The notes under the pieces are model-generated. The model had not been told where the DNA came from, made no database searches, and saw nothing but the letters and a program-made list of their open reading frames with translations. Below, piece after piece: positions 15,294-36,251 of a stretch of 64,000 nt of DNA. A program made the translations under genes and the position numbers. The DNA is from an uncultured delta proteobacterium (lineage in GTDB: Bacteria > Desulfobacterota > Binatia > UBA9968): contig CAVSLC010000025.1 of assembly GCA_963728565.1 (NCBI GenBank), forward strand, positions 1 to 64,000, in the 5' to 3' direction. Position 1 is the stretch's first letter. Every line of letters begins with the position of its first letter.

Positions 15294-15309
15294 AGCATCA
15301 GTTGTGCCA
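15294..15309 (-). promoter_or_regulatory. Sigma-54 (-24/-12) promoter
   Basis: TGGCACAACTGATGCT on the minus strand; matches the site at 8033. Confidence 0.75.
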
Positions 15310-16216: not shown

Positions 16217-17020
16217 ATGTACAATCGACGGCGAACCCGGAACAAAATGATCGGCATCGAAGCGGAGCCCCTTGGCAAAAATGATTTACATGTCCGCATC
16301 GCTTCCTTGGATCGCCGGAAGTCGGAGCGGGATTTTTTTGAAAGTATTCTTGCCGCCGATGAAATCAACCGAGCGAACCGCTTTTATTTTCAGAAGGACC
16401 GCAAACGGTTTATCGTCGGCCGAGGATTGTTGAGAGTGATCCTGAGTTCTTATGTCGGAGTGCCAGCCGATAAGATTATCTTCACTTACGGCAGCCACGG
16501 CAAGCCCGGGTTAGAACGGCAAGACGGTCAACCCGCGATCGAGTTCAACCTGTCTCACTCTGGTGGAACGGCAATCTACGCGATAACACGAGATCGGGCT
16601 ATGGGAGTAGACATCGAAGCACTTGAACCCGATTTTCCCACAGAGGACGTTGCTAGGAATTTTTTTTCTTTGACTGAACTGGCAGCACTCCGCAGTCTGC
16701 CAAAGGACATGCAAAGCGTGGCGTTCTTTAAATGTTGGACCCGAAAGGAAGCCTTCATAAAGGCTCTTGGCGATGGACTGAGTTGTCCTCTATCGGATTT
16801 TGACGTTTCGCTAATGCCGGGCCAGCCGGCAAAATTGTTACAGATTAGAGGGGCTTCCGAGGAAGCCTCTCGCTGGTACATGGAGGATATAGAATCTGTA
16901 GCAGGCTACGCGGCCGCCGTTGTTTTCTCTGGGCCGCAGTGCCGGATGCATGTTAGCCAATGGGACTCAAACAGCGGGAATGGAAATGAACCAGTTGTCG
17001 GAATATTGAATAGGGAATAG
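16217..17020 (+). CDS. 4'-phosphopantetheinyl transferase (Sfp-type)
   Basis: GKP, FNLSHS, GVDIE, WTRKEAFIKALG. Confidence 0.95.
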   Translation: MYNRRRTRNKMIGIEAEPLGKNDLHVRIASLDRRKSERDFFESILAADEINRANRFYFQKDRKRFIVGRGLLRVILSSYVGVPADKIIFTYGSHGKPGLERQDGQPAIEFNLSHSGGTAIYAITRDRAMGVDIEALEPDFPTEDVARNFFSLTELAALRSLPKDMQSVAFFKCWTRKEAFIKALGDGLSCPLSDFDVSLMPGQPAKLLQIRGASEEASRWYMEDIESVAGYAAAVVFSGPQCRMHVSQWDSNSGNGNEPVVGILNRE

Positions 17021-17109
17021 ATTAAAAGAGCGTACAGCTTCTTCTTTAGGCCTACCGAACTACCGCGCGATCTGACAGAACGGTCTAGCTGAAGCAGGGA
17101 GAAGCTGGG

Positions 17110-20100
17110 GTGAATTGCCCTCGCTGTAAGAATCAGAATCCTGACACCGCGGCTTTTTGCGATGAGTGCGGCACGCCGCTGGAAACCGCTTGTTCCAGCT
17201 GTGGCGAAGCTAATCGACGAGGAGCTAAGTTTTGTAAAAAATGCGGCCAGTCACTTAGCCGACCAGCGATTGCAAGTCAGAGCATCGCGGCCAACATCTC
17301 ACAACGCCAGCCAACTATTCCGAAACACCTTGCCGAAAAAATCCTGGCTGAGCGTCACACTTTGGAAGGTGAGCGAAAGCAGGTGACGATCTTATTTGCC
17401 GACATTAAAGATTCCACACGCCTTGTGGAAGGGCTCGACCCTGAGGATGCGCAGAAGCTACTAGATCCAATCCTAAAAGCCATGATGGATGCGGTGCATC
17501 GTTATGAAGGAACCGTTAATCATATCTTAGGGGACGGCATCATGGCGCTGTTTGGCGCACCGTTAGCTCATGAAGATCATGCAGTGCGCGCATGTTATGC
17601 CGCATTGGCAATGCAGCAGCTGCTGCGGCAGCATCGTGCCGGGATCGGTTCTTCAGAAGAATTACCACAGATATGTATCGGCTTGAATTCAGGCGAGGTG
17701 GTTGTCCGGACGATCGATAATGATCTCAATTTTGATTATCTGGCAGTGGGAGATTCTATTCATCTCGCGGCGCGAATGCAGGAACTGGCCGCACCCGACG
17801 CAATTTTGATCACCGCCAGAACCTTGCGCGAAGTAGAAGGCTTTGTTCAGGTCAAATCTCTTGGATTACAGCAACCCAAAGGATTTACCCGGCTGATTGA
17901 GACCTTTGAATTGACCGGCGTGACTGCTGTACGCAAGCGATTGCATGCCGCGGTTGTGCGAGGACTCAGTGGTTTTGTTGGGCGCGGGACAGAGATTGAG
18001 ATTTTTAAGCGTGTTTTGCAGCAAGCGAGTTCAGGTCACGGTCAGATCTTGGCGTTGTGTGGTGAGCCAGGGATGGGCAAATCACGGCTCGTCTATGAGT
18101 TCACGCACAGCCATCTACCTCCGGAATGGACAGTGCTCGAAGCAACCTCCGCATCTTACGGCAAAGCTACGCCGTACTATCCGTTAATTGAATTGCTTCG
18201 ACGTTATTTCCAAGTCAATGAAGGCGAGAACGGTGAAACGATTCGGCTCAAAGTTCAAAGGCATCTAATTGAATTGGATGCGAGACTAAAAGACGCAGTT
18301 CCGCCTCTTCTGGCTCTGTTAGACGCTTTGCCGGATGCGGAAACTCAGGGGAAAACCGATGGTTTTAGCAAAAATGATCGTGAGTTGTTTGAGCTCATCC
18401 AGAAGTTCGAATACCTGGAACCCCAACAACGACGGCGGCTAACTTTTGAAGCTCTCAAGCGAGTGTTGATCCGTGAAAGCTTGAAAAACCCCGTTCTGTT
18501 GCTGATGGAGGATCTTCACTGGATTGATAACGAGACCCAGGCGTTTCTCGACCATCTGGTGGAGAGTCTGCCCATGACCCGCCTGTTGCTCCTGGTTAAT
18601 CATCGACCCGGCTACAGCCACACTTGGTCGGACAAGAGTTATTACACCCAGATACGCGTCGATCCGTTGTCAGATCAAGGAGCGGAAGAATTACTGCGGA
18701 TTCTATTAGGTGATAATCAAGATCTAGCGTCTCTTAAAGAATTGTTGATCAAGCGAACCGAAGGAAATCCACTTTTTGCGGAGGAGAGCGTGCGCTCTTT
18801 GGTGGAAAGCGGGTTTCTGGTCGGTGACAAAGGGCATTACCGAGCTGGTCTTAAGATCGACAGCATTCGCATTCCCAGCACCGTGCAAACCGTTCTCGCG
18901 GATCGTATTGACCGATTACCGATCCCGGAAAAGCATCTCCTACAAACAGCGTCTGTTATCGGAGTCATTGTTCCCATGGCTCTGCTGCGCGCTGTAGCAG
19001 GATTGCCGGAAGACGAACTCTACCGTCAGCTTGCGAAGCTCCGCTCGTCGGAATTTCTTTACGAATCAAATCTTTTTCCCGATCTCGAATACACGTTTAA
19101 ACACGCGCTTACCAACGAGGTTGTTTATGGCGCGATGCTTCACGATCACAAAAGCCTTCTGCACGCACGGATTGTGAATGCGCTCGAGGAGTCAGCTGCA
19201 GAAATATCGCATGACCACATCGAGAAGCTGGCTCACCACGCCTTCCATGGCGAGCTTTGGGATAAGGCGGTTCCTTATTTAGAGGAGGCTGGCGCTAAAG
19301 CTGTTTCTCGATCATCTTTTCGTCATGCGGTGCTTCGTTTCGAACAGGCGTTGGAGGCGCTAAAGCATCTTCCAGAAATTCGCGTTAATCTTAAACACGC
19401 TGTCGACTTGCGGATTGAAATGCGCAACGCACTATTTATCCTCGGGGAATTTCGCCAGGGACTCGAGCGTCTGGAACAAGCAAAAGCGGCAGCGATTTTG
19501 TTGAACGATCAAAGTCGATTGGGAAAGTTGTTCAATCTAATAACGGCTCACTGGAATCTTGCAGGGAATCCTGAGCAGGCGATCGCCTCCGGTATGGAAG
19601 CACTGAATCATACGACGGCGCAAGCGAATATCGATCTACGTATTGTAACACATTATTTTCTCGGCGCGGCCTTCCATAACTTGGGTCAATTTCAGAAGGC
19701 TGTTGATGTACTTGAGCGCGCACTGACGCTCATAGGAGATCGACGCTTCGAGCTGTTCGGTACAACGGGCATTGTTTCAGTCATTAGTAGAGCCTGGTTG
19801 GTTCGGTGCCTTGCGCAGCTTGGCGAGTTTAGAGAAGCGGCTCATCATGTGGATGAGGCAATGCAGACTGCGGTGGAAAGTAAGCATCCTTACAGTATTG
19901 TTTATGCGTGTTACGGCGTGGGTATGTTCTACCTCGTGAAAGGAGAGTTTGATCAGAGCGTTCTTGTTCTCACCCGCGGATTAAAAGTATGTGACGAAGC
20001 GGAGATTCCGGTTCAGCGACCTCTGATCGGCTCATGTTTGGGTGCCGCTTACGCTTTTTTAGGACGATTTGATGAAGCTCTAAATCTTCTGGAAAGAGCG

Positions 20101-20541
20101 GTGGAGCATACTGAATCCATGAGAAGACTCGGCGGACAGGCTCTGCGAATGGCCTTATTGAGTGAAGCATATATGTTAGCCGGACGCGCGGTTGAAGCGG
20201 AAGCGCTTGCGCGCCGCGGTTTGGAGATGTCGGTCCAGACTAAAGATAAAGGAAGCCAGGCATCGTTGCTTCGGGTTTTAGGCCACATCATCGCTTCGCG
20301 GGATTCATTGGATGCGGAGGAGGCCGCGGTGACTTTCAACCAAGCGTTGATTCTTGCTCAAGAATTAGGGATGCGTCCGATGCAAGCGCATTGTCACCTT
20401 GGAATTGGGCAAGTTCATTTAAAGGCGAAGAATCTTGTAGAAGCTCGTTCTGAAATCCTTGAGGCTGCAAATCTGTACCGACGCATGTCAATGCCCTTCT
20501 GGCTTTTAAAGGCAGAAACGTGGCTTGATAGTCTGGCTTAG
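17110..20541 (+). CDS. Double zinc ribbon - class III cyclase - STAND (AAA_16) ATPase - TPR protein
   Basis: Four CxxC; GERKQVTILFAD; GDGIMALFG; GEPGMGKS Walker A; EDLHWID; GNPLF; C-terminal TPRs. Confidence 0.93.
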   Translation: MNCPRCKNQNPDTAAFCDECGTPLETACSSCGEANRRGAKFCKKCGQSLSRPAIASQSIAANISQRQPTIPKHLAEKILAERHTLEGERKQVTILFADIKDSTRLVEGLDPEDAQKLLDPILKAMMDAVHRYEGTVNHILGDGIMALFGAPLAHEDHAVRACYAALAMQQLLRQHRAGIGSSEELPQICIGLNSGEVVVRTIDNDLNFDYLAVGDSIHLAARMQELAAPDAILITARTLREVEGFVQVKSLGLQQPKGFTRLIETFELTGVTAVRKRLHAAVVRGLSGFVGRGTEIEIFKRVLQQASSGHGQILALCGEPGMGKSRLVYEFTHSHLPPEWTVLEATSASYGKATPYYPLIELLRRYFQVNEGENGETIRLKVQRHLIELDARLKDAVPPLLALLDALPDAETQGKTDGFSKNDRELFELIQKFEYLEPQQRRRLTFEALKRVLIRESLKNPVLLLMEDLHWIDNETQAFLDHLVESLPMTRLLLLVNHRPGYSHTWSDKSYYTQIRVDPLSDQGAEELLRILLGDNQDLASLKELLIKRTEGNPLFAEESVRSLVESGFLVGDKGHYRAGLKIDSIRIPSTVQTVLADRIDRLPIPEKHLLQTASVIGVIVPMALLRAVAGLPEDELYRQLAKLRSSEFLYESNLFPDLEYTFKHALTNEVVYGAMLHDHKSLLHARIVNALEESAAEISHDHIEKLAHHAFHGELWDKAVPYLEEAGAKAVSRSSFRHAVLRFEQALEALKHLPEIRVNLKHAVDLRIEMRNALFILGEFRQGLERLEQAKAAAILLNDQSRLGKLFNLITAHWNLAGNPEQAIASGMEALNHTTAQANIDLRIVTHYFLGAAFHNLGQFQKAVDVLERALTLIGDRRFELFGTTGIVSVISRAWLVRCLAQLGEFREAAHHVDEAMQTAVESKHPYSIVYACYGVGMFYLVKGEFDQSVLVLTRGLKVCDEAEIPVQRPLIGSCLGAAYAFLGRFDEALNLLERAVEHTESMRRLGGQALRMALLSEAYMLAGRAVEAEALARRGLEMSVQTKDKGSQASLLRVLGHIIASRDSLDAEEAAVTFNQALILAQELGMRPMQAHCHLGIGQVHLKAKNLVEARSEILEAANLYRRMSMPFWLLKAETWLDSLA

Positions 20542-20559
20542 TTCATCGTTGAGGGCTGC

Positions 20560-23500
20560 GTGTCTGCGCATCAAAAGTCCTTCGTTTCGTTCAGCAGAGC
20601 TGAGGTGGAACAAACGGTCCCTCAACGCTTTAAACAACAGGCGGACAAATACCCCAATAATATTGCCATCAAGACCCGACGTGATCAGCTCACTTACTCC
20701 GAGTTGAATCGTTCTGCGAACCGGCTAGCTCAGGCGATAGGACAAAGATCCTACAATAACAACCCTGTCGCCCTTCTTTTAGCACACGATGCACCTGCCA
20801 TCGTCGCGATACTCGGAGTATTGAAAGCAGGAAAGTGCTTTGTTCCGATTGACCTGTCTCTTCCTCGCGCTCGCATTCAGTACATTCTAGATGACTCGGA
20901 AGCAACGCTGGTTGTAGCAAACAGCGAAGCTTTGCTTCTTGCTCAGGATGTGGATGGTGGCTCTCGTAGTCTGCTTAATTTGGATCAGCTGGACACATCG
21001 GTGTCGGCTGAGGACCCGCTAACGCCCGGCGCGGCGGACAACGTCAGCTGTATTCTTTATACGTCTGGTTCCACCGGGCTGCCTAAAGGCGTGCTCCACA
21101 CTCACCGCAACGAACTCCATAACGCAATGCATCACACCAATAGCCTGCACCTCAGTGAGCAGGACCGGCTTACTCTCTTTGGCTCCTACAGCACTGGTCA
21201 GGGCATACAAGACATTCACTGTGCATTGATGAACGGAGCAACGCTGTGTCCGTGGAATCTTAAGTCGGATGGGTTCAGTGGCCTTTCTGATTGGTTAATT
21301 CAGGAACGGATTACCATCTATCACTCCGCCGCGACCGTTTTTCGTCACTTCATTCGCAATCTAAGCGGACGCGAAGAATTTTCGGATCTTCGAATTGTAA
21401 GGTTAGGTAGTGAGCGGGTTACTTCGAAGGATGTGGAAACCTATAAACGGCACTTTTCAAAAGAATGTGTCTTCGTAAATGCACTGTCCAGCTCAGAGAC
21501 TAAAACGATTCGACAGCACGTTATCAATAAAGACACACAAACATTCGGAATCGTTCCTGTGGGTTACCCTGTCGAGGACATGGATGTTTTTGTCGTTGAT
21601 GAGAATGGTCGTCAGTTAGGCCCTAACCAAACTGGTGAAATTGTTGTTCGTAGTGGATACATCTCTCCAGGATACTGGAAGAAGCCGGATCTTACGAGTG
21701 CCGCCTTTTTGCCCAACGGTAGCGATCCCGACATGCGGATTTTTAGAACGGGAGAGTGGGGTAGGATCGCTTCTGATGGTTGTCTCGAACATCTCGGACG
21801 AAAAGATGCTCAGATAAAAATCCGCGGTTATCGGGTCGAAACCTATGAGACGGAGTCGGCACTGCTAAAACATCCGGCGGTAGATCAAGTTCTTGTTATG
21901 TCCCGGGAAAATCCGACAGGAGACAAATTCCTTGTAGCCTATATCGTTACTGACCCGGCATCGAGTCCTACAGTCAGCATGCTGCGAAAATTCCTCGAAC
22001 AACGAATACCAAACTATATGGTGCCGTCCGCTTTTGTTTTTCTAGAATCTTTACCGTTCACACCAAACGGCAAGGTTGATCGTACCGCGTTGCCCGAGCC
22101 TACCGCAGCACGTCCAGTGCTCGAGACGCCGTTTGTTATTCCTCGGGATGACCAAGAGCAGGTCCTCGCAGACATATGGAGCGAGATACTAGGGATTAAC
22201 GAGTTAGGAGTGCACGATAACTTTTTCGATCTCGGTGGAACGTCCATCTTGGCAATGCAACTTGTTTTTCGTCTCGAAAGGATCTTCGGAGCGAATCTGT
22301 CGTTGCAGGAATTTCTCGAATCACCAACCATTGATGACTTGAGCCGAAGTATCTCAGCTAATCGTGGGTCGCAACAAGTTTTGAAACGGTTGGCGTTAGA
22401 GCCCTCAGAACGAACTGATAATCTCCCACTGTCATTTTCTCAGCAGCGATTATGGTTTTTGGACCAGTGGGAACCAGGCAATGCGGTTTATAATATTTGC
22501 CGGGCTCACCATTTGAGCGGCCACGTGGACGTCACAGCGCTCCAGCAAGGTATTGATGCAATCGTACAGCGCCACGAAGTTCTCCGTACGATATTCCCAG
22601 CTAGGAACGGGCACCCGACGCAGTTCATTTTGCCCGACTTGACTTGCTGGCTATCAGTCATTGATCTAGCAGACCTGCCCTCAGAAACGCGACATAAGCA
22701 AAGCTCCCAGCTAATTACCAAAGAAGCGAGCAGCGCGTTTGATCTTTCTCAAGGACCATTACTAAGAGCGACATTGGTGCGTTTGGCCGAAGAAGAGCAC
22801 CTGTTTATCTTTACCATTCACCAGATTGTCTGTGACGGTTGGTCGGTTCATGTGTTCTATCGTGACTTCTGGGCCCTCTATGAGGCTTTTTGTGAGAAGC
22901 GCGAGGCAACCCTTCCGGTTCTGACGTATCAATTCGCCGACTTGGCGCTGTGGCAGCACCAATTAATCAAGGGAGAGTTATTAAGCTCGCAGCTTTCTTT
23001 TTGGAAAGATCAGCTCGGAGATGCTTTGTCAGTTCTAAATCTTCCGACCGATCGGTGTCCGCCAAAGCTGCAGAGTTTTCGTGGAGCGCGGCACGTGGTG
23101 AGATACTCAGAGTTCTTAACGGACGCGCTCAAAAAATTGAGCAGAGGTGAATCGGTCACTCTCTTTATGACATTGATGGCAGCATATCAGACGCTGCTCT
23201 ACCGATACACGGAACAAGAGGATGTAGTTGTCGGTTTTCCAATTGCAAATCGTAATTCGCACGAGGCTAAGGATGTGATGGGTTTTTTTGTCAATACCTT
23301 GGTTGCGCGTACCGATCTAACAGGAAACCCTCGATTTACCGAGCTTCTTGCCCGAGTCCGGGATGTTTGCGTGGCGGCGTATAGTAATCAGGATCTTCCC
23401 TTCGAAAGACTCGTAGAGGAGTTACATCCGCAAAGGGACGGAAGTCGTAATCCGCTGTTCCAGGTCATGTTCACGTTTCAAAGTCCGGATCCAACCCGCT

Positions 23501-26500
23501 TCGAAGGGCGAAGTATGAAAGCGGAAGCTTTGGAAGTGGACGGCGGAACATCCAAGTTTGATCTAATGCTTTCTCTAACGAACAGGGGTAAAGACCTAAT
23601 CGGATATTTCGAATACAGCACGGATCTGTTCGACGGCTTAACGATTGAGAGGATGGCTGGAAATTTTCAAACATTGCTCGAAGGGATTGTCGCAGATTCG
23701 GATAAGCGCTTATCGGATCTGCCGCTGTTAACCGGAACCGAAAGATATCAGCTTCTGACAGAATGGAATACCACTCAATTCTACTACCCCGAAGATCAAT
23801 GCATTCATCAGCTGTTCGAAGCCCAAGCGAATCGAACCCCTGAGGCGATCGCTTTGTCGTTTGCGGACAAAGAAATCAGCTACGGAGAACTAAACAAACG
23901 CGCTAATCAGTTGGCGCATTATTTAATCGAGTTGGGAGTTGGGCCTGGGACGTTGGTCGGAGTTTGTTTAGAGCGATCATTGGATTTGATTGTTGGGCTA
24001 TTGGGAATACTTAAAGCTGGGGGTGCCTATGTCCCGCTGGATCCATTGTTTCCTAAAGAACGTCTCGCCTTCATGCTGCAACACGCCCAGGTTTCTATAT
24101 TGCTGAGCGAGAATAAATTGCACGAATCATTGTCCGTGTTGTCTTCCTCAGTTCGGGTTGTTCGTTTGGATAGAGACTGGAAAGAGATCGCTGAACAACG
24201 AGACGACCATCCGTCAACCGAAGTTCATTCTGATAACCTGGCCTATGCTATTTACACTTCCGGGTCGACGGGCAGGCCGAAAGCAGTTCAAGTCTCACAC
24301 CGATCCGTCGTCAACTCCTTGTATTCTATTCGTCACACGGTTGGATTTACTGAAGATGATATTTTTCTTGCTCTTGCCACGATTTCGTTCGATATTGCCG
24401 CGCTTAGAACTTTATCTTGCCGTTATTGATCGGGGCCCGGGTTGTGCTCGCCAATCGAGAAGAAGTTTGGACGGGAGGGAGTTGGCGACAGATGATAGGG
24501 TCGTCGGGGGTGACGGTGATGCAAGCAACACCGTCGACCTTGAGGCTTTTGCTTGAAGCGGATGGCGAGGCCGTGAAGAGTTCAAGATTCTCTTGTGGTG
24601 GCGAAGTTCTATCTCCGGCGACTGGCCGATCAGTTGCTCGATGGTGGCGCCTCGTTATGGAATCTCTATGGTCCGACTGAGACTACCATTTGGTCCACTC
24701 TGCTAAAGGTTGAACCTGGAGAAGATCCGGTGCCGATTGGACGGCCCATCGGGAACACCCAAATATATGTCTTGGATTCCTACTTGCAGCCAGTGCCGGT
24801 GGGAGTACACGGCGAGCTTTATATCGGCGGTGATGGTGTGGCGCGAGGCTATATGAACCAGCCGGAGCTAACCGCGGAGAAATTCGTACCAGATATTTTC
24901 AGTGATCAAACGGGATGCACGTCTCTACCGCACGGGAGATCGCGCTCGTTACCGGCCAAACGGAAACATCGAATTCCTTGGTCGCGTCGATAACCAGGTT
25001 AAGATCCGTGGCCACAGAATCGAGTTAGGCGAAATTGAGTTTGTGCTCAATCAGCATCCTGCGGTGAAAGAATCCGTCGTTGTATGTCATGAAGGTGAAA
25101 CGTGCGAGGAAAAGGAGTTTGTAGCCTACATCGCTCCAAATCGCGACTCAGTGTTTTCGGTGAATGATCTGAGGATATTTGCTTGTCAAAAGCTGCCCGG
25201 CTACATGATTCCTCCTACGTTTGTAATTTTGGAGGCCTTACCGCTAACGCCTAACGGCAAGATCGACCGCAAATCACTGCCGCCGCCGGACGGCGACAGA
25301 CCGCTACTAGACCAAGCTTTTACTGAACCGCGTACGGAGATTGAGGAGTTAGTCGCGCAAGTGTGGCGTGAAGTGCTGAAGCGCGACAAGATTGGTGTTT
25401 ACGATAATTTCTTCGATTTGGGCGGACACTCACTGCTCGCGATACGCGTGGTTGTACGTTTAAGGAGCGCTTTCCAGATCGATCTCGCGTTGCGTAAACT
25501 GTTCGAGCGGTCCACCGTCGCGGGTCTCGCGGAGCATATCGAAACCTTACGCCGCAGCGCCGCGGGGACGTTCATCCCGCCGCTTGTGGCCATTGCTCGA
25601 AATCGTTCGCTGCCGTTGTCTTTCTCCCAGCGTCGCCTCTGGTACTTGCAAAAAGTTGATTCAAATCTGAGTGCGTACAATATCCCGGCGGCGTTCCGTA
25701 TTCGAGGCGATCTCAATCATGCGGCTTTGGAGCAAGCGCTCAATGACGTGCTCGGACGTCATGAGGTACTGCGCAGCTACACTAAAGAAATCGACGGACA
25801 ACCGAGTCAGGAATACGTACCTGGCATACGTATTTCGCTGCCGATGATCGACCTGACCGATCTCCCTAGGGAAGAAGCGGAAGCCGAGGCGAATCGCCGA
25901 TGCGACGCTGACGCACACCAACTTTATGATCTGGGAATCGCCCCCTTGATCCGCGCAGCGCTCCTCAAGCTGGCCACAGGTGAGCATGTATTGATGCTCA
26001 ATTTTCATCACATCATCGTCGACGGCTCGTCGCTGGCGATTTTCTACCGCGAGCTCGGGCTCTTCTACGAAGCTACCTGCGAAGGTAGGAAAGCTTCTCT
26101 GTCACCACTTCCAGTTCAGTACTCTGACTTCGCAGCCTGGCAACAGGAGTGGCTCAAGTCCGAGGCCTTCGACATCCAAATCGCCTACTGGAAACGTCAG
26201 CTCGCCGATTTGCCGCGAGCGTTCGAATTGCCAAACGCTTTCGACCGTCCGGAGCTGCTTTCCCATTGCGGTGCTCGAGTGTGCCGACAGTTGTCCGACG
26301 CCTTAACCGCCGCGCTAAAAACTTTTAGTCGGCAATACGGCGCAACGACGTTCATGGCGCTCTTCGCGGCCTTCAATGCCTTACTGTCGCGCCTCACCTG
26401 TCGTGAAGACATCATCGTCGGGTCGACGATCGCCGGGCGTAATCGTCCCGAAACTGAAGGCCTGATCGGTTTTTTTATCAATGCCCTACCACTTCGCACT

Positions 26501-28903
26501 GACCTTTCCGGTGATCCGAGTTTCAAAGTGCTGCTTGAGCGTGTCCGCGAGACTTGTCTCGACGCCTATACCCATCAGGACATGCCATTCGAAAAAATTG
26601 TCGAAGAGCTGCGGCCGTCCCGAGATCCGGGGCACAATCCGATTTTTGACATCCTCTTCAATGTTGCCGATCGCTCCGAGCGCACTCTGACGTTGACTGG
26701 CTGCCAAGTGAGCAAGCTTGCGCAATCAAATCCGGACGCAAAATTCGACCTGGTGATTCACGCACCGGACGTCGACGGTAAGATCGAACTGGCCATTGTC
26801 TACAATACCGCGCTATTCCGCGAAGTTCGCATGGCGCTCTTGTTGGAGCAATGGGCAAATCTTTTAGCTCAAGCAGTGAGCAGCCCTGAGCTGCCCATCA
26901 GCCGGCTGTCCCTGATCACAGAAAATTCGAAAGTATTGCTGCCCGATCCCACTGCAACGCTCGACGGCAAGTGGGAAGGCGCCATTCATGAGATTTTGGC
27001 GCAGCATGCTCGGCGGTCACCGGACGAATTGGCGCTGGTCGATCCGAATCAAAGCTGGAGTTATCGCGACCTTGATAAGGGCGCCGATCGTCTTGCTAAC
27101 GCACTCATAGCCGCGGGAATCAAACCGAAAGATCGGATCGCAATTTACGCTGAGCGAAATTCATCTCTTGTCGTCGCGATATTCGGCATTCTCAAAGTGG
27201 GTGCAGCATTTCTTATCCTGGACCCCGCCTACCCGCAGGCGCGAACGATTGAGTACCTCCGCGCTGTGCAGCCGAAAGGATGGCTACAGCTCAGCAGCAT
27301 CGGCGAGTACGATGAACTGGCGAGCTATCTCGATGCACTAGATTTGCGTTGCCGCATAAAAATTCCGCATGCGAAGGGCGAATTGCTGCAAAACTTGGTG
27401 TCGTTCTCGGATAGCGTGCCGAGCGCTCGAGTTGGTGCCGATGATCCCGCCTACATCGCGTTCACTTCCGGCTCTACGGGGGAGCCAAAGGCCGTGCTCT
27501 GTCGCCACGGGCCCATAACTCACTTTCTGCCGTGGCAGAAGGAAGCCTTCGGGTTCACAGAGAACGATCGGTTTGCCATGCTCTCCGGACTGGCCTATAG
27601 CCATTTGCACCGGGATATTTTTACCCCTATACAACTGGGGGCGACGATTTTCATTCCGAGTTCCTCACAAGCGCGCTCACCCAATGAGCTCGCATATTGG
27701 CTCCAGCGGAATGCCATCACGGTTCTCCATCTCACGCCGGCACTCGGGCAATTATTAATGACCGGCGCGAACATGCCGCTTCCAGCAGTGCGCCGGGTGT
27801 TTTTTGGTGGCGACGTTCTGACGATGGGAATCGTTGCGCAAACGTGTGAGTTGGCGCCAAATGCAGTTATTGGAAGCTTCTATGGATCAACGGAGACCCA
27901 ACGTGCCGTGGGCTATTATGAGATCACGAATGATCCGAAGATTCGATCGAGTAACGCGGTTCCGCTCGGCAAGGGAATTCGAGACGTACAGCTCCTGGTG
28001 CTCAGCAAGAGCGGACAATTAGCCGGTGTGGGCGAGCTCGGCGAAATATTCGTGCGCAGCCCTCATCTGGCCACAGGCTACATCAGCGACGACGCACTGA
28101 CGCAGCGTATGTTCATAATCAGTCCGTTCACCAATGATCCGGCGGACCGCCTGTACCGAACTGGCGAACTAGGTCGATACATGCTGGACGGCAACGTCGA
28201 ATGGGCCGGCCGCAACGACCGGCGTGTGAACATCCGCGGTTTCCGGGTTGAGTTAGAAGAGATCGAATCGCTTCTTAACAGCCATCCGGCAGTCAAAAAC
28301 GCCGCGGTGGTACTGCAAGCATTTGACGAGAAATTCTACAGAACGCCAGAATCGGGAGGGTCCGATTTCGACGAACGAAAATCGAAAATTGAAAATCCAA
28401 AATCTGACAGCCGTTTAATGGCATACATTGCCACCGATGAAGAGTCACAAAGCCTCGAAAACCAGCTGCGTTCGTATTTGAGCGCACGGCTGCCCGACTA
28501 CATGGTACCCGCTCATTTAATAATATTGAGCTCGCTGCCGCTAAGCTCTAACGGCAAAATCGATTATCGAGCGCTGCCACCGATACGATTTTCGGTCGCC
28601 CCGACATCTATAGAGCCGCGCAACGCAATTGAAGCGAAGCTCCAAGCGATCTTCACCGAGGTGCTTGGACGATCGGACATCGGTATTGATGATAATTTCT
28701 TCCGCCTCGGCGGACATTCATTGCTTGCAGCACGCGCCGCCGTCCGGATTACCGATGCCTTCGGGGGGCTCAGCCTGGGACTTTCGGCTTTCCTGGAGAC
28801 TCCAACCGTAAAGGGGTTGGCATTAAAAATGGCTTCAGCACTCTCTGCTGGACAAAGAAGCACGCACTCGGATAAAGACGGGCGCGAGGAGTTTGATTTA
28901 TAA
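20560..28903 (+). CDS. NRPS 1 (A-T-C-A-T-C-A-T), interrupted by a cluster of indels at about 24400-24620 and about 24910
   Basis: Three A domains (YTSGSTG), three GG[T/H]S PCP motifs, two C domains; A2 continues across ORFs 20560..24429, 24417..24680, 24595..24993 and 24902..28903. Confidence 0.88.
28378..28405. repeat. Heptamer tandem repeat, in frame inside the NRPS A3 domain
   Basis: AAAATCG AAAATTG AAAATCC AAAATCT encodes KSKIENPKS. Confidence 0.7.
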
Positions 28904-31900
28904 ACTCAGACGAGTTTGTCGCATATCTTGAGGAGCTGGGAGTTCGGCTTAGTGCCGAAGGCGAACGTCTCCACGTAAATGCGCTCAGGGGGAAACTGCC
29001 CAACGACGTGCGCGCCCAGATCGCCGAACAGAAAGCGGGGATCCTTGCATTTCTGCGCAGGCGACGCTCCAATCGAGTCACCGCACCACCCGTCAAACCT
29101 CGCTCAACTGCTGATCCAGCCCCTTTATCGTTTGCTCAGGAACGGCTCTGGTTCTTAGACCAACTCGACCCGGGACGTGCCGTTTACAATATCTGCCGGG
29201 CATCGCGTCTGCTCGGAACTCTAAACACCCCCGTTCTACAAACCAGTCTCAACGCCGCCGTCAATCGACATGAAACCCTGAGAACCGCCTTCAGACTAAT
29301 CGATGGCCAGCCGAAACAAGTCGTTCAGCCCAGCCGGACCATTTCCCTCGAAACTGTCGACCTAAGCACCGTGCAAGAAAGCGAGCGCGCCGCGAATATC
29401 CAGCGCGAAATCGAATCGCAAGCCCTACGTTCTTTCGATCTCCAGTCCGGCGCAATGCTGAGATGCGTGTTGCTGCGGGTTGGTGAACAAGAACATATCC
29501 TCATCTTGGCGACCCACCATAGCGCCGCCGATGCCTGGTCGCTGGGGACCCTGACGCGGGAGTTGTGGACACTTTATGATGCATTCTCCAATGGCAGGCC
29601 ATACGCCTTAGAGCCGCTCGCCGTGCAGTACTCGGACTACGCGGTTTGGCAACGTGAGTGGTTGACAGGGGATGTGCTCGAATTGCAGCTGGGCTATTGG
29701 AAGAAACGCCTCAAGGATGTTTCGGTTCTCAATCTGCCGACGGATCGGCCGAGAAGGCCGCGTCAGAGTTTTCACGGCTCGCGGCTGACCATCGAGTTGC
29801 CGGACGACCTGACAAGCGCCGTGAACGAAATGAGCCATCGCTTTGCGGTGACGCCCTTCATGATCTTGCTCGCGGCGTTTCAGGTGTTGCTCTACCGTTA
29901 CACGGGACAGGAAGATGTCGTAGTTGGCTCCCCGATTGCCAATCGCTGCCGCACGGAACTTGAGGGGTTGATGGGATTCTTCGTCAACACGCTGGTCTTG
30001 CGCGCCGACCTCTCTGGAAACCTCTCGTTCAGCGAATTTCTGTCACGGGTGAGAGACACTTGTGTTGGCGCCGATGCCAATCAAGACTTGCCTTTCGAAA
30101 AGCTAGTTCAGGAACTGCAACCCGAACGCGACCAAAGCCGCAATCCGCTGTTCCAAGTCATGTTCGTTTTGCAAAATGCGACGCGCCCGTTTACCGGCAT
30201 TCCGGGGCTACGAATCGAGCCACTGGAAGTCGCTACCACCCGCTCACCATTCGATCTGTCGCTGTTCCTGCGTGAGCGCGACCGTAAGTATGTCGGCAAT
30301 ATCGAATACAGCACCGACCTGTTTGATCACGACCGAATCGAGAGAATGGCTGGTCATTTTCAGATTTTATTGGAGGCGATCGTCAAAGAGCCCGACCAAT
30401 CAATCGCGAAATTGCCGATACTCACCGAGGCAGAGCGGCATCGAATTTTGGTCGAATGGAACGACACCGCGGCCGATTATCCCAAAGACAAGTGCATCCA
30501 CCAGCTATTCGAAGCGCAAGTCGAGCGTACACCGGAAGGCATCGCAGTGGAATTTGAAGACCAGCAGATCACTTACCGGGAGCTCAATCGGCGAGCGAAC
30601 CAGCTCGCGCATTACTTACTGACACTTGCGGTCGGGCCGGAGAAGTTGGTCGGCATCTGCGTGGAGCGGTCCATTGAGATGGTGGTCGGATTGTTAGGGA
30701 TTCTCAAAGCAGGCAGCGCCTATGTGCCGTTAGATCCGGCTTATCCTAAAGAGCGTCTCCGTTTCATGTTGAAAGATGCAAACATCTCAGTGTTAGTGAC
30801 ACAGGAAAAGCTCTTAGAAAGTACTCAAAATTTAACGCACCGCACTCGGCACTTCGATGTCTGTCTCGATCGTGACTTACCGATGATCGAGCAGCAAAGG
30901 AGTGAGAACCCAGTAGCCCTAATTGACTCTCACAATCTCGCTTATGTGATTTACACCTCAGGTTCGATGGGGCAACCCAAAGGCATTGCCATTGAACATC
31001 AAAACACCGTCGCGCTACTCAACTGGGCAAAGGAGGTGTTTTTACCAGTAGAAATTGCCGGTGTGCTGGCTTCGACATCAATTTGTTTCGATCTATCCGT
31101 CTTCGAGTTGTTGGTACCATTGAGTCAAGGCGGCAAGATTGTTCTCGTTGAGAATGTATTGTTCTTGCACGAAGCAGCAAGCAACGGAATCACGTTGGTA
31201 AACACAGTCCCTTCCGCGATGGCAGCCTTGCTGGCTGCCGGAGCATTGCCCGCTTCAGTTCGGGTCGTAAACCTAGCGGGTGAGCCACTCCGATCAGAGC
31301 TGGTGAATCAACTTTATCAAACCGGTACGGTCAAAAAGGTGTACGACTTATACGGTCCCTCGGAAACAACAACCTACTCGACATTCACACGCCGAACTGC
31401 TATCGGCCCGGCTACAATCGGCCGGCCGATAGCAAATACGCGTGTGTACTTACTGGACTCACACTTGCAGCCGGTCCCCGTCGGTGTGCCGGGTGAGCTT
31501 TGCATCGGTGGAGCAGGCGTAGCTCGTGGTTACTTGCATCGCCCCGAATTGAGCGCGGCCAAATTCATTACCGATCCCTTTAGCAAAGATCCCAACGCGC
31601 GCATTTACCGCACCGGAGACCTCGCGCGCTACCTACCGGACGGCAACATCGAATTCCTCGGCCGCACAGACAATCAGGTAAAAATCCGTGGATACCGCGT
31701 CGAGCTTGGCGAAATTGAAAGCGTACTCAACCAGCATCCAGTCGTGACAGAGTCCGTAGTCGTTGCGTCTTCATTTCCTACCCCTAGACAGGGGAGGATT
31801 AAGGTGGAGGTGGCACTCCCGACAAACAGCATGCGAGAAGAGACACCCCTATCCCAACCGTACCCCGTCGAGGGGGAAGGAGTTTCGGAATCGAATCGCA

Positions 31901-33732
31901 ACTTAATCGCGTACTTTGTGTCTAATACTGAAAAGCCTTCAGCACCCGAGCTACGGAGTTTTCTCAGTCAAAGACTTCCTGAGTACATGATTCCTTCAGC
32001 ATTTGTAGTCTTGGAGGCCTTACCTCTAACCCTTAACGGCAAAATCGATCGATCGAAGTTGCCACCGCCCGATCGCGCGAGACAGGAGATCGATCAAAGG
32101 TTTGTTGAGCCTCTATCAGAGAATGAAGAGTTGGTCGCACAAATCTGGCGCGAAGTGCTCAAGCTCGACAAGATAGGCATCCACGACAACTTCTTCGAAT
32201 TGGGCGGACACTCGCTTCTAGCAACTCAGGTAGCTGCGCGGCTCAGCGATGCCTTCAATCGAGAAATTCCGTTGAAGACTCTCTTCGACGCGCCAAGCGT
32301 CGCGATGCTGACGGAAAGCCTTGAAAGCATCATCAGGGATGGCAACACGCCCAAACTTCCGCCGATTGTTCCGATGGCCCGCGACCGGCCGCTGCCGTTA
32401 TCTGTGAACCAGGAGCATTTGTGGCGTTTGGATCAGATGATTCCGGGCACGCATTTCTTCAATATGCCTTTTGTCTATCAGCTAAGCGGTTGTCTGAATA
32501 TAAAAGCTCTCGAGAAAGCCATTGCGGAAATCATCAGGCGCCAGGAAGCGCTACGTACTGTCTTTATCGATACGGACGGCCGGCCAGCTCAAGTCATTGA
32601 ACCGGCTTCTGACTTCCAACTGCCTGTCACCGATCTTCGAAGCCGCGCGGCGGCTAGCCTGGCAGAACATGCGGCTAGTTTGATACTGGAAGAACGGGAA
32701 CAGCCGTTTGCTCTATCGAGAGGTCCACTCTTTAGGACAAAACTCCTGCGGTTGACCGATGATGATCATCTGTTTCTGATCACAATGCACCATATTATTG
32801 GCGATCATTGGTCAATGTTGGTATTTCGTCGAGAGTTAGTCGTCCTCTACAAAGCCTTTTCCCATGGCCGCAGCGCTCCCTTACCCGAACTCTCCATTCA
32901 GTTCGCCGACTTTGCGTGTTGGGAACGGCGGGCAATCGAACGAGGATCCATGAAACACCAGCTCGTGTACTGGAAGAAGCAGCTTGCTGCGCCTGCGCCC
33001 GAGCTTAGGTTTCAGAGAGATGGGAGACGGCGAAAGCGGCTACCCTTTCAGATCTGCCGGCAATCCATGGAGTTTGATGAAAATCTGTTTGTCTCGGTTA
33101 AAGCGCTGGCGCGTAAGGAGAACTGCACACCTTTTTTGATCGTGCTCACAGCTTTAAACGCGATGCTTTACCTTTACACCCGAGAGACGGATATTCCGAT
33201 AGGCACGCTGGTGGCCAACCGGCGCCGACCGGGAACGGAAGGATTGATCGGCCACTTTGTTAACACTGTCGTGCTACGCACCCGATTTTCGCCCGAGATG
33301 ACCTTTAGTCAATTATTAGCACAGGTACGAGAGGTTACCCTCTCAGCCCATGCGCACCAGGAGCTTCCGTTTGAACACTTAGCCCATAGATTAGACCGAA
33401 AGAAAAACACGAGAAGTGGCTCGCTCTTTCAGGTCCTATTCATCTATCAGAATTGGAGCTTTCCGTCTCAAGATACAGCTGGCCTTAGTCTTGCCTCTGT
33501 AGATATGCGTCAAGCAGCAGCCGAACAGGAATTAATGCCTACAACGTTTGACTTGATTTTTAATCTAAGGGAAGCGTCAACGATGTTAACAGGAACTATC
33601 AACTATAAAGTCGAAAGTGTTGACGAGGACATCGTTCGCAGGATGCGTGGATCGTTTGGCGAGGTGTTGCAAAGGATGATAGCTCACATAGGGCAACGGT
33701 TTGCAAATCTTTCTGTGGATGTGGAGATTTAG
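28900..33732 (+). CDS. NRPS 2 (TubC_N docking - C - A - T - C terminal)
   Basis: The frame upstream of GTG 29008 reads INSDEFVAYLEELGVRLSAEGERLHVNALRG (TubC_N-like) from ATA 28900 after a GAGGAG RBS; HHSAAD, YTSGSMGQPKG, GGHSL, terminal HHIIGD; no TE. Confidence 0.88.
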   Translation: MNSDEFVAYLEELGVRLSAEGERLHVNALRGKLPNDVRAQIAEQKAGILAFLRRRRSNRVTAPPVKPRSTADPAPLSFAQERLWFLDQLDPGRAVYNICRASRLLGTLNTPVLQTSLNAAVNRHETLRTAFRLIDGQPKQVVQPSRTISLETVDLSTVQESERAANIQREIESQALRSFDLQSGAMLRCVLLRVGEQEHILILATHHSAADAWSLGTLTRELWTLYDAFSNGRPYALEPLAVQYSDYAVWQREWLTGDVLELQLGYWKKRLKDVSVLNLPTDRPRRPRQSFHGSRLTIELPDDLTSAVNEMSHRFAVTPFMILLAAFQVLLYRYTGQEDVVVGSPIANRCRTELEGLMGFFVNTLVLRADLSGNLSFSEFLSRVRDTCVGADANQDLPFEKLVQELQPERDQSRNPLFQVMFVLQNATRPFTGIPGLRIEPLEVATTRSPFDLSLFLRERDRKYVGNIEYSTDLFDHDRIERMAGHFQILLEAIVKEPDQSIAKLPILTEAERHRILVEWNDTAADYPKDKCIHQLFEAQVERTPEGIAVEFEDQQITYRELNRRANQLAHYLLTLAVGPEKLVGICVERSIEMVVGLLGILKAGSAYVPLDPAYPKERLRFMLKDANISVLVTQEKLLESTQNLTHRTRHFDVCLDRDLPMIEQQRSENPVALIDSHNLAYVIYTSGSMGQPKGIAIEHQNTVALLNWAKEVFLPVEIAGVLASTSICFDLSVFELLVPLSQGGKIVLVENVLFLHEAASNGITLVNTVPSAMAALLAAGALPASVRVVNLAGEPLRSELVNQLYQTGTVKKVYDLYGPSETTTYSTFTRRTAIGPATIGRPIANTRVYLLDSHLQPVPVGVPGELCIGGAGVARGYLHRPELSAAKFITDPFSKDPNARIYRTGDLARYLPDGNIEFLGRTDNQVKIRGYRVELGEIESVLNQHPVVTESVVVASSFPTPRQGRIKVEVALPTNSMREETPLSQPYPVEGEGVSESNRNLIAYFVSNTEKPSAPELRSFLSQRLPEYMIPSAFVVLEALPLTLNGKIDRSKLPPPDRARQEIDQRFVEPLSENEELVAQIWREVLKLDKIGIHDNFFELGGHSLLATQVAARLSDAFNREIPLKTLFDAPSVAMLTESLESIIRDGNTPKLPPIVPMARDRPLPLSVNQEHLWRLDQMIPGTHFFNMPFVYQLSGCLNIKALEKAIAEIIRRQEALRTVFIDTDGRPAQVIEPASDFQLPVTDLRSRAAASLAEHAASLILEEREQPFALSRGPLFRTKLLRLTDDDHLFLITMHHIIGDHWSMLVFRRELVVLYKAFSHGRSAPLPELSIQFADFACWERRAIERGSMKHQLVYWKKQLAAPAPELRFQRDGRRRKRLPFQICRQSMEFDENLFVSVKALARKENCTPFLIVLTALNAMLYLYTRETDIPIGTLVANRRRPGTEGLIGHFVNTVVLRTRFSPEMTFSQLLAQVREVTLSAHAHQELPFEHLAHRLDRKKNTRSGSLFQVLFIYQNWSFPSQDTAGLSLASVDMRQAAAEQELMPTTFDLIFNLREASTMLTGTINYKVESVDEDIVRRMRGSFGEVLQRMIAHIGQRFANLSVDVEI
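31775..31881. repeat. REP-like palindromic element inserted in frame in the NRPS A4 domain
   Basis: 38-nt arms (31775-31812 and 31844-31881) are reverse-complementary at 25/38 positions by manual count; each arm is internally CCCC..GGGG. Confidence 0.65.
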
Positions 33733-33836
33733 TTCGCCGCGATAGCATTGTGTCGACGCCAACGCCGCAGATGTCTTTGTGTAGAGGCAAGAGAGTCAAC
33801 TTAACAATCCGCAATCTATTTGAATGGGGGTGACGT

Positions 33837-35942
33837 ATGTCATCGTTAACAAGCTGGGAACCGTCGGAACGCGCAGGACTTGGAGAATCATTGGAATACA
33901 TCCAGAGGTTGATCAGAGTGCCCTTGGATCATGATAACGAAAAAGAAGGTGAGTTCGATTTATACTACTTCATTCACAAACCCGTTGGATCAGTGAAAGA
34001 TGGTCTGAAAACTGTGCTCTTCTGCGCCGGCGGGCCAGGCCAAATAGTCCGGCCTCGCGATGAAAATTTATTGAAGTTTCTTAGAGATGAAAATACCGCT
34101 TATCGGATAGTCCATTTCCATCTTCGCGGCTCAGGCTTTAGCCAAATCCCACCAGATAGTGAGTCTGATAGATTTGTAAGAACATCCCAGGCGGTTCGAG
34201 ATATAGAAAGAATTCGTTTAGCCGTTCTTAAAGATCAACCATGGGACGGAATAGTTGGTTACAGTTATGGAACGGTGCTGGCACAGCAATATGCCAGTAA
34301 ATACAAACTAATGGTTCGAAAATTGATCCTGATCGGACCGCTATCGATGCACAAATTCAAGTCGCTCAAACCGGCAGAGGTAAAGGCTGCGTTCGATGTA
34401 TACGCAAAGGAGGTTCAGAAAGTTCGACAAACGGTGATAGGCAAGATTTACGAAAAGAATGAAGAATTTAAAGATAAGGTTTCCGAAGCCGACATAACCG
34501 AAATTGAAGCCAAGCTAGCGGACGTTTTTGACAGGATTGAAGGAAGCTTTGGCAGCGAAAAGTTTGTCGCCGACAAGCACAGCAAATTTTTTGATGATGG
34601 TAAGTTGGAGAAAGCGCAGTTGGAAAAGTACAGTAAACTCTTTTTCGAGAAGCTGTGCGAATTACGATTTATCGGCTGGCAACCCACTGAGATTGAGAAT
34701 CTCAGGGCTCGACAAGTGGAAGCGGCAAGGGTGATAGCGTTGGAATTAAAATCCGATGATCTTAGTTTAGGGGGTAAACTGGGCACCTTAGAGCCTAAAA
34801 ATGATTCCGCCGACGACCCTGTCGATGAATCATACAGAACGTTGTATGTAATGTGGGCCTACGACGGTTTTCGCCCGAGGTTTTTAAAAGAGTTGGCGGA
34901 AAGCAATCAAGATATCGGCGCCGCGCTCAAAAAGGGCGCCGAGAGAGTGGGCGGCAACGAGTTCATTGAAAAGATCGGGATCAGTAATGTCAAGCCAACG
35001 GTATGGGATCCCGCAGAGCATAAACACGACGTGCCGACTCTTATTTTAGAAGGAGATGCCGATCCTGTTACAGCAGATGGACAAGCGGAACATTACTTCG
35101 AGCAGGCTCTTACGGGGCCAAGAACTTTCATTAAGTTCGCAGGAGTTGGGCATGGATTCGATTTACCCCTGATCAACATCGAGAAGCCGTATCTAATCGG
35201 CTCGGTTCTTATCGATCCGAAGACCGTCAAAAAAGGGGAGAGCAACCTGGAGCTGTCGGGCTCGATTCCTAGTGTCGCTCGAATCATTGATAGTGGCGGA
35301 GGTGGAAACGATAGAGTCGCTGCAGTGAGCGGTTCCAATCTCGAATTTCAAGACGCCATAATACTCCGCGACAACAAAGTGTCTGTTAGGGTCATTAATC
35401 GCTCGGCTCAGGAAGAGGATACGGCGAATATCCATCTTACGATTAAGCACAATCTATTTACCGCCGGAGTCACCCTGAAAGACTCAAAGGTCCCTCGAAA
35501 AGGCAAGTCCTGGGTTTCCGGGACGTTTAAAATAAACGAGGAGAATTACGTTCTGAAACCACCGGCCAATCTGGAAGATGGGCTGGAGCTAATTGAAGAA
35601 TCTGTGCAATTGGAACTTCCCGATAAGGTGTCCCTTAAGATCAAAAACACCGCTGATCATGACGTGGAGGCTAAACCCAAAAATTGGATCTACATGCCGA
35701 CTCGTGGAGCAAAGTTTAAGGGCCCCTGTCAGGGGAAGGGTCTTCCTTCGCGAAATTGTCTAATCTATGCTTTTTTAGAGATGGAACATGAAGATTTCCG
35801 AAACCAGAAGTCTGAATTTCTGGAATTGGGCGGAGAAATACGTCAGTACATACGAACCATAGATCATCGTCCCGGCAAGACCGGTGAACAGATTCAATCG
35901 TCCAGTGAAATCTTTGAAAAGGTACCTGAGAATGTTTCATAG
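33837..35942 (+). CDS. Alpha/beta-hydrolase (S33/TAP-like peptidase) with a large C-terminal beta-rich extension
   Basis: AGGPG oxyanion motif, RGSGFS, GYSYGT nucleophile, EGDADPVT, GVGHG. Confidence 0.85.
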   Translation: MSSLTSWEPSERAGLGESLEYIQRLIRVPLDHDNEKEGEFDLYYFIHKPVGSVKDGLKTVLFCAGGPGQIVRPRDENLLKFLRDENTAYRIVHFHLRGSGFSQIPPDSESDRFVRTSQAVRDIERIRLAVLKDQPWDGIVGYSYGTVLAQQYASKYKLMVRKLILIGPLSMHKFKSLKPAEVKAAFDVYAKEVQKVRQTVIGKIYEKNEEFKDKVSEADITEIEAKLADVFDRIEGSFGSEKFVADKHSKFFDDGKLEKAQLEKYSKLFFEKLCELRFIGWQPTEIENLRARQVEAARVIALELKSDDLSLGGKLGTLEPKNDSADDPVDESYRTLYVMWAYDGFRPRFLKELAESNQDIGAALKKGAERVGGNEFIEKIGISNVKPTVWDPAEHKHDVPTLILEGDADPVTADGQAEHYFEQALTGPRTFIKFAGVGHGFDLPLINIEKPYLIGSVLIDPKTVKKGESNLELSGSIPSVARIIDSGGGGNDRVAAVSGSNLEFQDAIILRDNKVSVRVINRSAQEEDTANIHLTIKHNLFTAGVTLKDSKVPRKGKSWVSGTFKINEENYVLKPPANLEDGLELIEESVQLELPDKVSLKIKNTADHDVEAKPKNWIYMPTRGAKFKGPCQGKGLPSRNCLIYAFLEMEHEDFRNQKSEFLELGGEIRQYIRTIDHRPGKTGEQIQSSSEIFEKVPENVS

Positions 35943-36014
35943 CCGGAAAACTGCTTGACAAGCGGAGCATCATGTTGTTAGGAATAACCGCAAAAGCGTA
36001 ACAAGGAGGTTGCC

Positions 36015-36251
36015 ATGACCCTTACCAGCCAAGCGCTCGAAGATGAAGACGCTGCGGATTACGAAAAAATCAAGAAAAGACATTTGCAACTAAGCTCAGA
36101 CAAGCAAAAGGAATTAGGCGACGAACAAGCGAAAATTGTTCAAGAGGCTATCGGCTCGGTCGATCCGGAGACTCGCGCTACAATAATTAAAAAGATGGCT
36201 CCGTTAATAAAGAGCCAGATCCTCACGAACCCTAAATTCAAGAACGCTTAA
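36015..36251 (+). CDS. Small helical hypothetical protein
   Basis: Strong AAGGAGGT RBS; 78 aa; co-oriented with the cluster. Confidence 0.6.
   Translation: MTLTSQALEDEDAADYEKIKKRHLQLSSDKQKELGDEQAKIVQEAIGSVDPETRATIIKKMAPLIKSQILTNPKFKNA

Follow-up and report, generated by a model that had tools for sequence, protein, structure and literature searches.

What does a nonribosomal peptide synthetase (NRPS) line make when two of its four adenylation (A) domains lack the aspartate at position 235 and no thioesterase (TE) closes the line, and is such a line intact? This question is raised by positions 16217–36251 of a 64-kb stretch of DNA from the uncultured Binatia assembly GCA_963728565.1 (contig CAVSLC010000025.1), the whole of which is referred to here as the window. 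We favour, with moderate confidence, the reading that this locus is a co-directional NRPS operon of a widespread, uncharacterised family, which would assemble its product by the mechanism proposed below, and that the indels within it are artefacts.

Organisation of the NRPS gene cluster

A gene map was made from the list of open reading frames (ORFs) and from Pfam and NCBIfam profile scans of the translated ORFs. The map agreed with the gene order of the original prediction: a 4′-phosphopantetheinyl transferase (PPTase), a STAND cyclase, NRPS1, NRPS2, a hydrolase and a small ORF, with all six genes on the + strand. The intergenic gaps, that at the NRPS1/NRPS2 junction excepted, are short (89 bp between PPTase and regulator, 18 bp between regulator and NRPS1, 104 bp between NRPS2 and hydrolase, and 72 bp between hydrolase and small ORF), and this makes it plausible that the genes from the PPTase to the small ORF form a single operon.

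Four A, four carrier (T) and four condensation (C) domains were found in colinear modules, each above its Pfam cut-off, and their order is the one proposed earlier, namely A1-T1-C2-A2-T2-C3-A3-T3 in NRPS1 (20560–28903) and docking-C4-A4-T4-C5 in NRPS2 (28900–33732). In NRPS1, the starter A1 (20629–22074; Pfam AMP-binding at residues 24–373, AMP-binding_C at 430–505) is followed by T1 (22162–22347, PP-binding at residues 535–596, GGTS), C2 (22417–23757, Condensation at residues 620–1066), A2 (23791–25261, delimited by frameshift-aware alignments to six intact relatives), T2 (25349–25540, PP-binding at residues 150–213 of ORF 24902–28903), C3 (25607–26932), A3 (27000–28590, 3′ limit approximate, from its match to TIGR03443 and an HMMER alignment to LgrA) and T3 (28679–28870, approximate limits, the second Pfam PP-binding stretch, GGHS). 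The Pfam matches in NRPS2 place C4 at 29113–30447, A4 at 30508–32043, T4 at 32131–32316 and C5 at about 32365–33729. All four T domains carry GGTS or GGHS. By Pfam and alignment, HHxxxD is held by C3 (HHIIVDG), C4 (HHSAADA) and C5 (HHIIGDH), while C2 reads HQIVCDG, so that HHxxxDG is not found in every C domain. The Pfam scan of the cluster proteins yielded no match to PF00975 (thioesterase), to NAD_binding_4 (reductase) or to any methyltransferase or transporter domain, which upholds the earlier statement that TE, epimerisation (E), reductase (R), tailoring and exporter genes are lacking; in place of a dedicated TE or R release domain the line closes with a C domain, and an alpha/beta hydrolase is encoded as a separate protein downstream.

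A widespread family with a conserved C-A-T-C-A-T core

The distribution of this architecture was assessed in all 119 relatives that a search with A3 listed, with the window's own fragment excluded. Full-length C-A-T-C-A-T proteins of about 2200 aa make up 83 of the 119, and the first C motif starts with HQ in 82 of these and with QQ in the remaining one. In the same 83 proteins the first A domain is of the Gly type in 54 and of the Ser type in 15, and has the Ala code DLFNNALTYK in 12, with variants of it in two more. The code of A3 in the window is SHRHFGFRAK, which is also that of the relative L002, and Asp235 (PheA numbering) is missing from A3 in 115/119 relatives, where positions 235/236 read NH (65), SH (40), NY (5), DP (4), SL (3), AH (1) or TH (1); code positions 3–10 read RHFGFRAK in 84/119, and a REExx docking tail terminates 110/119. 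The closest relatives have source names from Binatia, and more distant ones from Rokubacteria and Acidobacteriota.

No characterised close match was found, as the matches listed bear generic names only, and the named NRPS equivalogs in NCBIfam all scored far under their cut-offs. A literature search retrieved nothing on Binatia and nonribosomal peptides, and no item on this family within the literature on Binatota NRPS gene clusters. From its sequence, we assign the cluster to a widespread, uncharacterised NRPS family. Each component is of a known kind; no named counterpart among the matches examined combines an HQ-type C domain, an elongation module whose A domain is Asp235-less and Lys2-like, and a peptidase-like hydrolase at a TE-less end.

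Frame breaks within A2

NRPS1 is not read in one uninterrupted frame, as it is divided over four listed ORFs (20560–24429, 24417–24680, 24595–24993 and 24902–28903) that span three frames. A simple indel repair in A2 had been envisaged originally, which is too simple: frameshift-aware alignment with six intact guides (L001, L002, P0023, P0057, P0033 and P0007) showed that the break consists of at least six single-base indels on the + strand, at about 24403, 24416, 24558 (a deletion), 24593, 24615 and 24913. All six events were recovered with five of the six guides, while L002 fuses the first two into a single 2-nt event, and with P0007 the second indel is placed at 24428. A possible extra pair at about 24465–24493 was seen with two of the four guides of one alignment run, and would bring back a D and an L at positions that are at least 90% conserved among 59 family members. 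There are thus 6–8 indels within 510 bp, while elsewhere the NRPS coding sequence (~13 kb) has no break, the 4-kb ORF 3′ of the patch included.

In two relatives, a Candidatus Binatia metagenome-assembled genome (MAG) (L001, 67% identity) and a Deltaproteobacteria MAG (L002, 62% identity), the NRPS1 region is a single intact and colinear ORF. After repair, the patch violates 5/59 family-conserved columns, compared with 12/134 in the flanks (Fisher p = 1.0), and it agrees with the family consensus at 73% identity, compared with 61% for the flanks. Because the indels are clustered, the patch is as conserved as its flanks and the downstream frame is open, a local artefact of sequencing or assembly is favoured over decay; as far as sequence can tell this is the most likely explanation, clearly ahead of decay, and the native NRPS1 gene is probably intact.

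Decay is the strongest of the competing explanations, and we rate it as unlikely. If NRPS1 were a genuine recent pseudogene, the A2 indels would be real, translation would stop part-way through A2, with only A1-T1-C2 complete, and the tetramodular product would not be made. The breaks are indeed present in the deposited contig, and the 1333-aa fragment is recorded in the database for a contig of 189,491 bp; none of the indels falls in a long homopolymer, and damage to the NRPS2 orthologue of L002 and to two further relatives (P0042 and P0123) could mean that the family decays often. Set against this are the packing of all 6–8 indels into 510 bp of a coding sequence that is otherwise unbroken over ~13 kb, the lack of a substitution excess in the patch, the open 4-kb downstream frame, which fits poorly with random mutation after inactivation, and an indel in a short G-run of another gene in the window, an ATPase gene.

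Out-of-frame stretches in relatives can also be counted in favour of an artefact, and they are of different kinds. The NRPS2 orthologue in L002 (6210–7475) shifts frame twice, near 6500 and 7002, at sites other than those of the breaks in the window. The closest relative of A3, P0042 (1157 aa, from a 737,547-bp contig), begins within T2 and has a short A3 stretch that looks out of frame, and in the closest relative of A1, P0123 (759 aa), A-T is followed by a C domain that gives way to nonsense sequence; from these features both proteins, which come from long contigs, look indel-damaged. The ATPase of the window (50595–53296), a P-type cation ATPase, is split in two ORFs with a junction at about 51215–51224, and its E1-E2_ATPase profile is matched over positions 2–81 in the first ORF and 85–181 in the second. 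The junction reads as one G lost from a G-run, and is the second frame break in the window.

The NRPS1/NRPS2 junction

The docking domain that had been proposed for NRPS2 was recovered as a TubC_N domain at 28909–29058 (PF18563, 55.9 bits against a cut-off of 26, profile positions 2–51 of 52), and NRPS1 terminates in the tail GREEFDL. TubC_N begins 99 nt 5′ of the first ATG, GTG or TTG codon in its frame (GTG at 29008), and the sole in-frame near-cognate codon upstream is an ATA at 28900 that overlaps the NRPS1 stop codon (ATTTATAA in the window and in L002 alike). In L002 the NRPS2 orthologue also follows NRPS1, and a comparison of the junction in the window (28894–29060) with that in L002 (about 6100–6260) showed that many of the differences are synonymous, which makes it very likely that the stretch upstream of GTG 29008 is translated. 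This pattern suggests a non-canonical start, or termination-reinitiation coupling, at NRPS2.

The end of the line and the hydrolase

The terminal domain C5 has, next to its complete HHxxxD, the stretches FADFACWERR and IGHFVNTVVLR, which we take to be motifs of the condensation type, and on these motifs an assignment of C5 as an E domain was rejected. NRPS2 ends in LSVDVEI. The best match of the A4 core in the Protein Data Bank is the McyA A domain 8jbr_A (E 4.9e-87), with 9/9 aligned code positions the same (D-L-F-N-N-A-L-T-Y). The McyA module is Ala-loading and followed by an E domain, unlike NRPS2 with its C-type terminal domain. A representatives search with T4-C5 returned only multi-modular NRPSs of 3,662–7,929 aa as its best 150 matches, each matched over 4–9 stretches at 30–40% identity; summed domains drive this ranking, so that an NRPS2 orthologue was not separable among them.

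The hydrolase that follows (33837–35942, + strand, 701 aa) matches Pfam Abhydrolase_1 rather than the type II thioesterase family PF00975, and gives weak matches to the NCBIfam models for proline iminopeptidase. It has the nucleophile elbow GYSYG (GxSxG), and in an alignment of 31 sequences S143 and H439 do not vary, while D409 is kept in at least 90%. The AlphaFold2 model (pLDDT 78.5, pTM 0.85) shows an alpha/beta core, a large helical lid and a C-terminal beta-sandwich (about residues 445–637) for which no Pfam match was found. The top Foldseek matches of the model are S33/S28 peptidase-like hydrolases (DM3, Hip1, prolylcarboxypeptidase, TnmK1 and tricorn factor F1; E 5e-9 to 1e-6), which span the core and the helical lid with low TM-scores (0.2–0.33 of the query) and 9–16% identity. 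There are 109 matches to the hydrolase in all, with relatives at 92, 86 (a named Binatia MAG) and 83% identity. For three pairs of NRPS and hydrolase relatives the sizes given for the longest contig are identical (26620, 25192 and 15614), which is suggestive of linkage of the two genes.

The chain could leave T4 by transfer through C5 to an outside nucleophile, by cyclisation, by hydrolase cleavage, or by passage to a further module elsewhere. The last of these would mean that the line in the window is incomplete, C5 being an ordinary elongation domain with its acceptor module, A1-like and of A-T or A-T-TE build, encoded elsewhere, and the product being larger than four units. We think this improbable: C5 does have the complete HHxxxD and condensation-type motifs, it matched T-C junctions within giant NRPSs at 30–40% identity, and A1 has many stand-alone A-T and A-T-TE relatives, but no such gene lies within the 64-kb window and NRPS2 is without a recognisable C-terminal docking tail.

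Adenylation specificity and the likeness of A3 to aminoadipate reductases

The specificity codes were read by means of motif anchors and HMMER alignments to LgrA and McyA. For A2 the code DILQLGLIWK, as first read, was recovered only after frame repair, with L299 encoded in a segment that uses a third frame, and it is identical in the intact L001 and L002; the code DLFNNALTYK for A4 was confirmed by the alignments and by the match to 8jbr_A. We take these to be Gly (A2) and Ala (A4) codes, and DVWHxSLIWK in relatives to be a Ser code, following the published code tables. Our literature search could not confirm these three readings; it retrieved nothing for the A3-type, Gly and Ala code strings, and well-known codes came up blank too, so that these blanks say little.

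Asp235 is present in A2 and A4, and its absence from A1 and A3, noted earlier, was borne out by the HMMER alignments to LgrA, which place a G in A1 and an S in A3 at this position. In alpha-amino-acid A domains this residue pairs with the alpha-amine (PMC12042044). The A1 code is about G-Q-Q-H-R-G-A-x-x-K, with NALSSSE as A5 motif and FRTGE as A7 motif. Relatives of A1 are mostly stand-alone A-T proteins (620–680 aa) or A-T-TE proteins (about 900 aa), are 46–54% identical to A1, have variable pocket residues and bear Binatia and Rokubacteria names. NRPS1 of the window has its starter A1-T1 fused to the C-A-T-C-A-T core, and the same A-T-C fusion occurs in P0123.

The second half of C3 together with A3 and T3 scored 740.8 bits on TIGR03443, the model of the fungal alpha-aminoadipate reductase (AAR, Lys2), over model positions 2–927 of 1390, compared with 316 and 357 bits for the other two NRPS pieces. 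Since this score is below the cut-off of 1030.1 and the A-T-R architecture is incomplete, with no reductase domain, A3 is a relative and not a member of the AAR family, from which it also differs in being embedded as an elongation module. A core motif, SGLAxxxxxRDIFTP, is presumably shared with Lys2. In Lys2-type domains it is the distal carboxyl of an amino-dicarboxylic acid that is activated, and by analogy with them the third unit, X3, would most likely be an acidic unit tethered via its non-alpha carboxyl. Bacterial sequences that group beside AARs have been noted before (PMC2823734).

The nearest proteins with a D-P type code are dimodular A-T-C-A-T-TE proteins from cyanobacteria (L003, L005, L008 and others), which are likewise uncharacterised and have a second A domain 41–44% identical to A3. 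Their code DPRHF(G/A/S)(F/Y)QAK has R239, H278, F299, A331 and K517 in common with A3, and they differ from it in keeping Asp235-Pro236 where A3 has S-H, in having Gln330 for Arg, and in having a TE end and no HQ-type C domain. In the more distant clusters L027 and L022 the module is terminal, with TE, and its codes are NKRHFGFRGK and NIRHFAFRAK, so that the codes form a gradient from the cyanobacterial DPRHF type via the L027/L022 types to the (S/N)HRHFGFRAK of the close family. A lysine-rich insert, (R)KSKIENPKS(D), lies in the A3 loop before the A9 strand (about 28400–28470) and is shared by A3, and in some cases A2, of P0003, P0004, P0005 and P0023; A4 and the domains of L002 have another insert, rich in proline and arginine, at its place.

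The product was earlier given as acyl-Gly-X-Ala with non-alpha-amino units. The order X1-Gly-X3-Ala is supported by the domain order and the codes as predicted from sequence, and the lack of Asp235 in A1 and A3 agrees with unusual units; an acyl nature of X1 does not follow, as pockets vary within the A1-like family, and neither does an amino-free X3, since A3 is most like Lys2-type A domains, in analogy to which X3 may well be an amino acid whose linkage uses an unusual carboxyl. That A1 and A3 load ordinary alpha-amino acids in spite of the missing Asp235, to yield a plain linear or cyclic tetrapeptide, is very unlikely: the core adenylation motifs A3, A8 and A10 are all present in both domains, and C3 and C4 have a canonical HHxxxD(G/A) and need a nucleophile on X3, yet Asp235 is absent from the two domains as well as from 115/119 A3 relatives, and A3 has its 740.8-bit match to the aminoadipate reductase model.

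The nucleotide likeness between modules 2 and 4 that had also been pointed out is present, in three segments, at an identity of only 64–74%, which is ordinary for paralogous modules, and a special repeat relation of the two was rejected for this reason. In L001 (1–311) and L002 (194–1310) the A domain of module 2 is, in its N-terminal part, nearer in nucleotide sequence to A4 of the window (30461–30983; 82% and 71%) than to A2 at its own position (23396–24096; 67% and 64%), a possible sign of recombination or gene conversion among the modules of this NRPS family.

Proposed assembly

The order of the domains is observed, and the chemistry that follows is what they would be expected to perform. 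The Sfp-type PPTase would prime T1–T4. A1, without Asp235 and with a polar and basic pocket, would load a non-alpha-amino carboxylic acid (X1) onto T1, and C2, with its conserved HQxxxDG variant, would couple X1 to Gly on T2. A3 (SHRHFGFRAK) would load X3, likely acidic and tethered by a non-alpha carboxyl, onto T3, where C3 would join X1-Gly to it; the REEFDL tail of NRPS1 would then dock onto TubC_N of NRPS2, and C4 would add Ala on T4. C5 would release the chain onto a nucleophile that is not encoded in the cluster, such as a free amine, an alcohol, water or an internal group, and the conserved S33-like hydrolase may aid release or act after it, with the STAND cyclase as the putative regulator. 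A new scaffold is a plausible product. We propose more tentatively, and with rather less than even confidence, that this is a large unstudied NRPS family of uncultured bacteria whose invariant core (the HQ C domain, a Gly/Ser/Ala module and the Asp235-less, AAR-like A domain) installs a non-alpha-peptide linkage, as an iso-peptide or ester via the distal carboxyl, and so makes a new scaffold class that is released by the terminal C domain and the peptidase-like hydrolase.

Several points weigh against this account. The insertion sites of the A2 indels, as said, are not long homopolymers. By Pfam the cluster has neither an acceptor for C5 nor an exporter. The codes do not name X1 or X3, and the assignments of codes to substrates (Gly, Ala, Ser and the "DPRH" type) are presumptive. 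Conservation across the family of NRPS2, hydrolase, PPTase and cyclase rests on one short contig (L002) and on the coincidences of contig size. Finally, C2 lacks the second His, the residue that is usually regarded as catalytic. A C domain with the same Gln for the second His of HHxxxDG, the HQxxxDM domain of streptothricin ORF18, is reported as catalytically active (PMC11546977), and by analogy to it C2 need not be dead; the likeness is one of motif, as ORF18, a C-T protein, uses a free aminosugar as its acceptor, and C2 lies in a normal elongation position between T1 and A2.

Accessory genes and genomic surroundings

The PPTase (16217–17020, + strand, 267 aa) is of the Sfp/HetI type, with Pfam matches to ACPS (67.5 bits) and AASDHPPT_N (56.4 bits) that are both above cut-off. 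It scored 189.5 bits on the HetI equivalog NF042922, below the cut-off of 370, and is thus predicted to be a member of the Sfp/ACPS superfamily only. The STAND-type regulator (17110–20541, + strand) consists by Pfam of a double zinc ribbon, Guanylate_cyc, an AAA_16 NTPase and TPR; it scored 296.5 bits on TOMM_kin_cyc (TIGR03903), below the cut-off of 705.75, in a match that begins at model position 281 and covers the cyclase-to-TPR part only, its N-terminus being the zinc ribbon with no kinase. The small ORF (36015–36251, + strand, 78 aa) is a putative gene from the ORF list and had sub-threshold Pfam matches only, none above cut-off.

The operon is flanked upstream (8738–14412) by genes for a CHASE2 adenylate/guanylate cyclase and a 1131-aa FecR-TPR-TonB-barrel protein, so that together with the STAND cyclase there are two cyclase genes within 12 kb, and downstream on the minus strand (36517–39413) by genes for a GAF sigma-54 activator and a PanE/ApbA-like 2-dehydropantoate reductase homologue. 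The latter (38373–39413, minus strand) and a DAO-type oxidase (42789–43901) were considered as suppliers of alpha-hydroxy or alpha-keto acids and were rejected, as nothing ties either to the operon. A sigma-54 promoter pattern had 27 matches compared with 29.4 expected, none of them upstream of the operon on the + strand, and no link between the operon and the adjacent sigma-54 activator is shown; the best sigma-54-like match on the + strand (8033–8048, TGGCAC-N5-ATGCA, one mismatch) is about 700 bp 5′ of the CHASE2 cyclase gene. A scan of 14300–17200 gave three sigma-70-like sites (2.3 expected) and three terminator-like sites (3.3 expected).

The G+C content drops near 5.5 kb, from about 0.65–0.69 (1–5500) to about 0.47–0.60 (5500–64000), and this step could mark foreign DNA or a chimeric assembly join; at 0.47–0.56 the NRPS cluster is not a compositional outlier. 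At 62562–63643 on the minus strand, two adjacent overlapping ORFs with one chromate-transporter domain each could be a natural short-ChrA pair or a further split gene.

Implications

As the frame breaks are probably technical, the intact relatives of about 2200 aa, such as P0022 and P0023, would be better starting points for expression. The family also opens to test the substrate of an Asp235-less, Lys2-like A domain, the mechanism of HQ-type C domains and release without a TE. If the domains predict the true product, this would be a defined, widely distributed and orphan biosynthetic family in a phylum without cultured producers.

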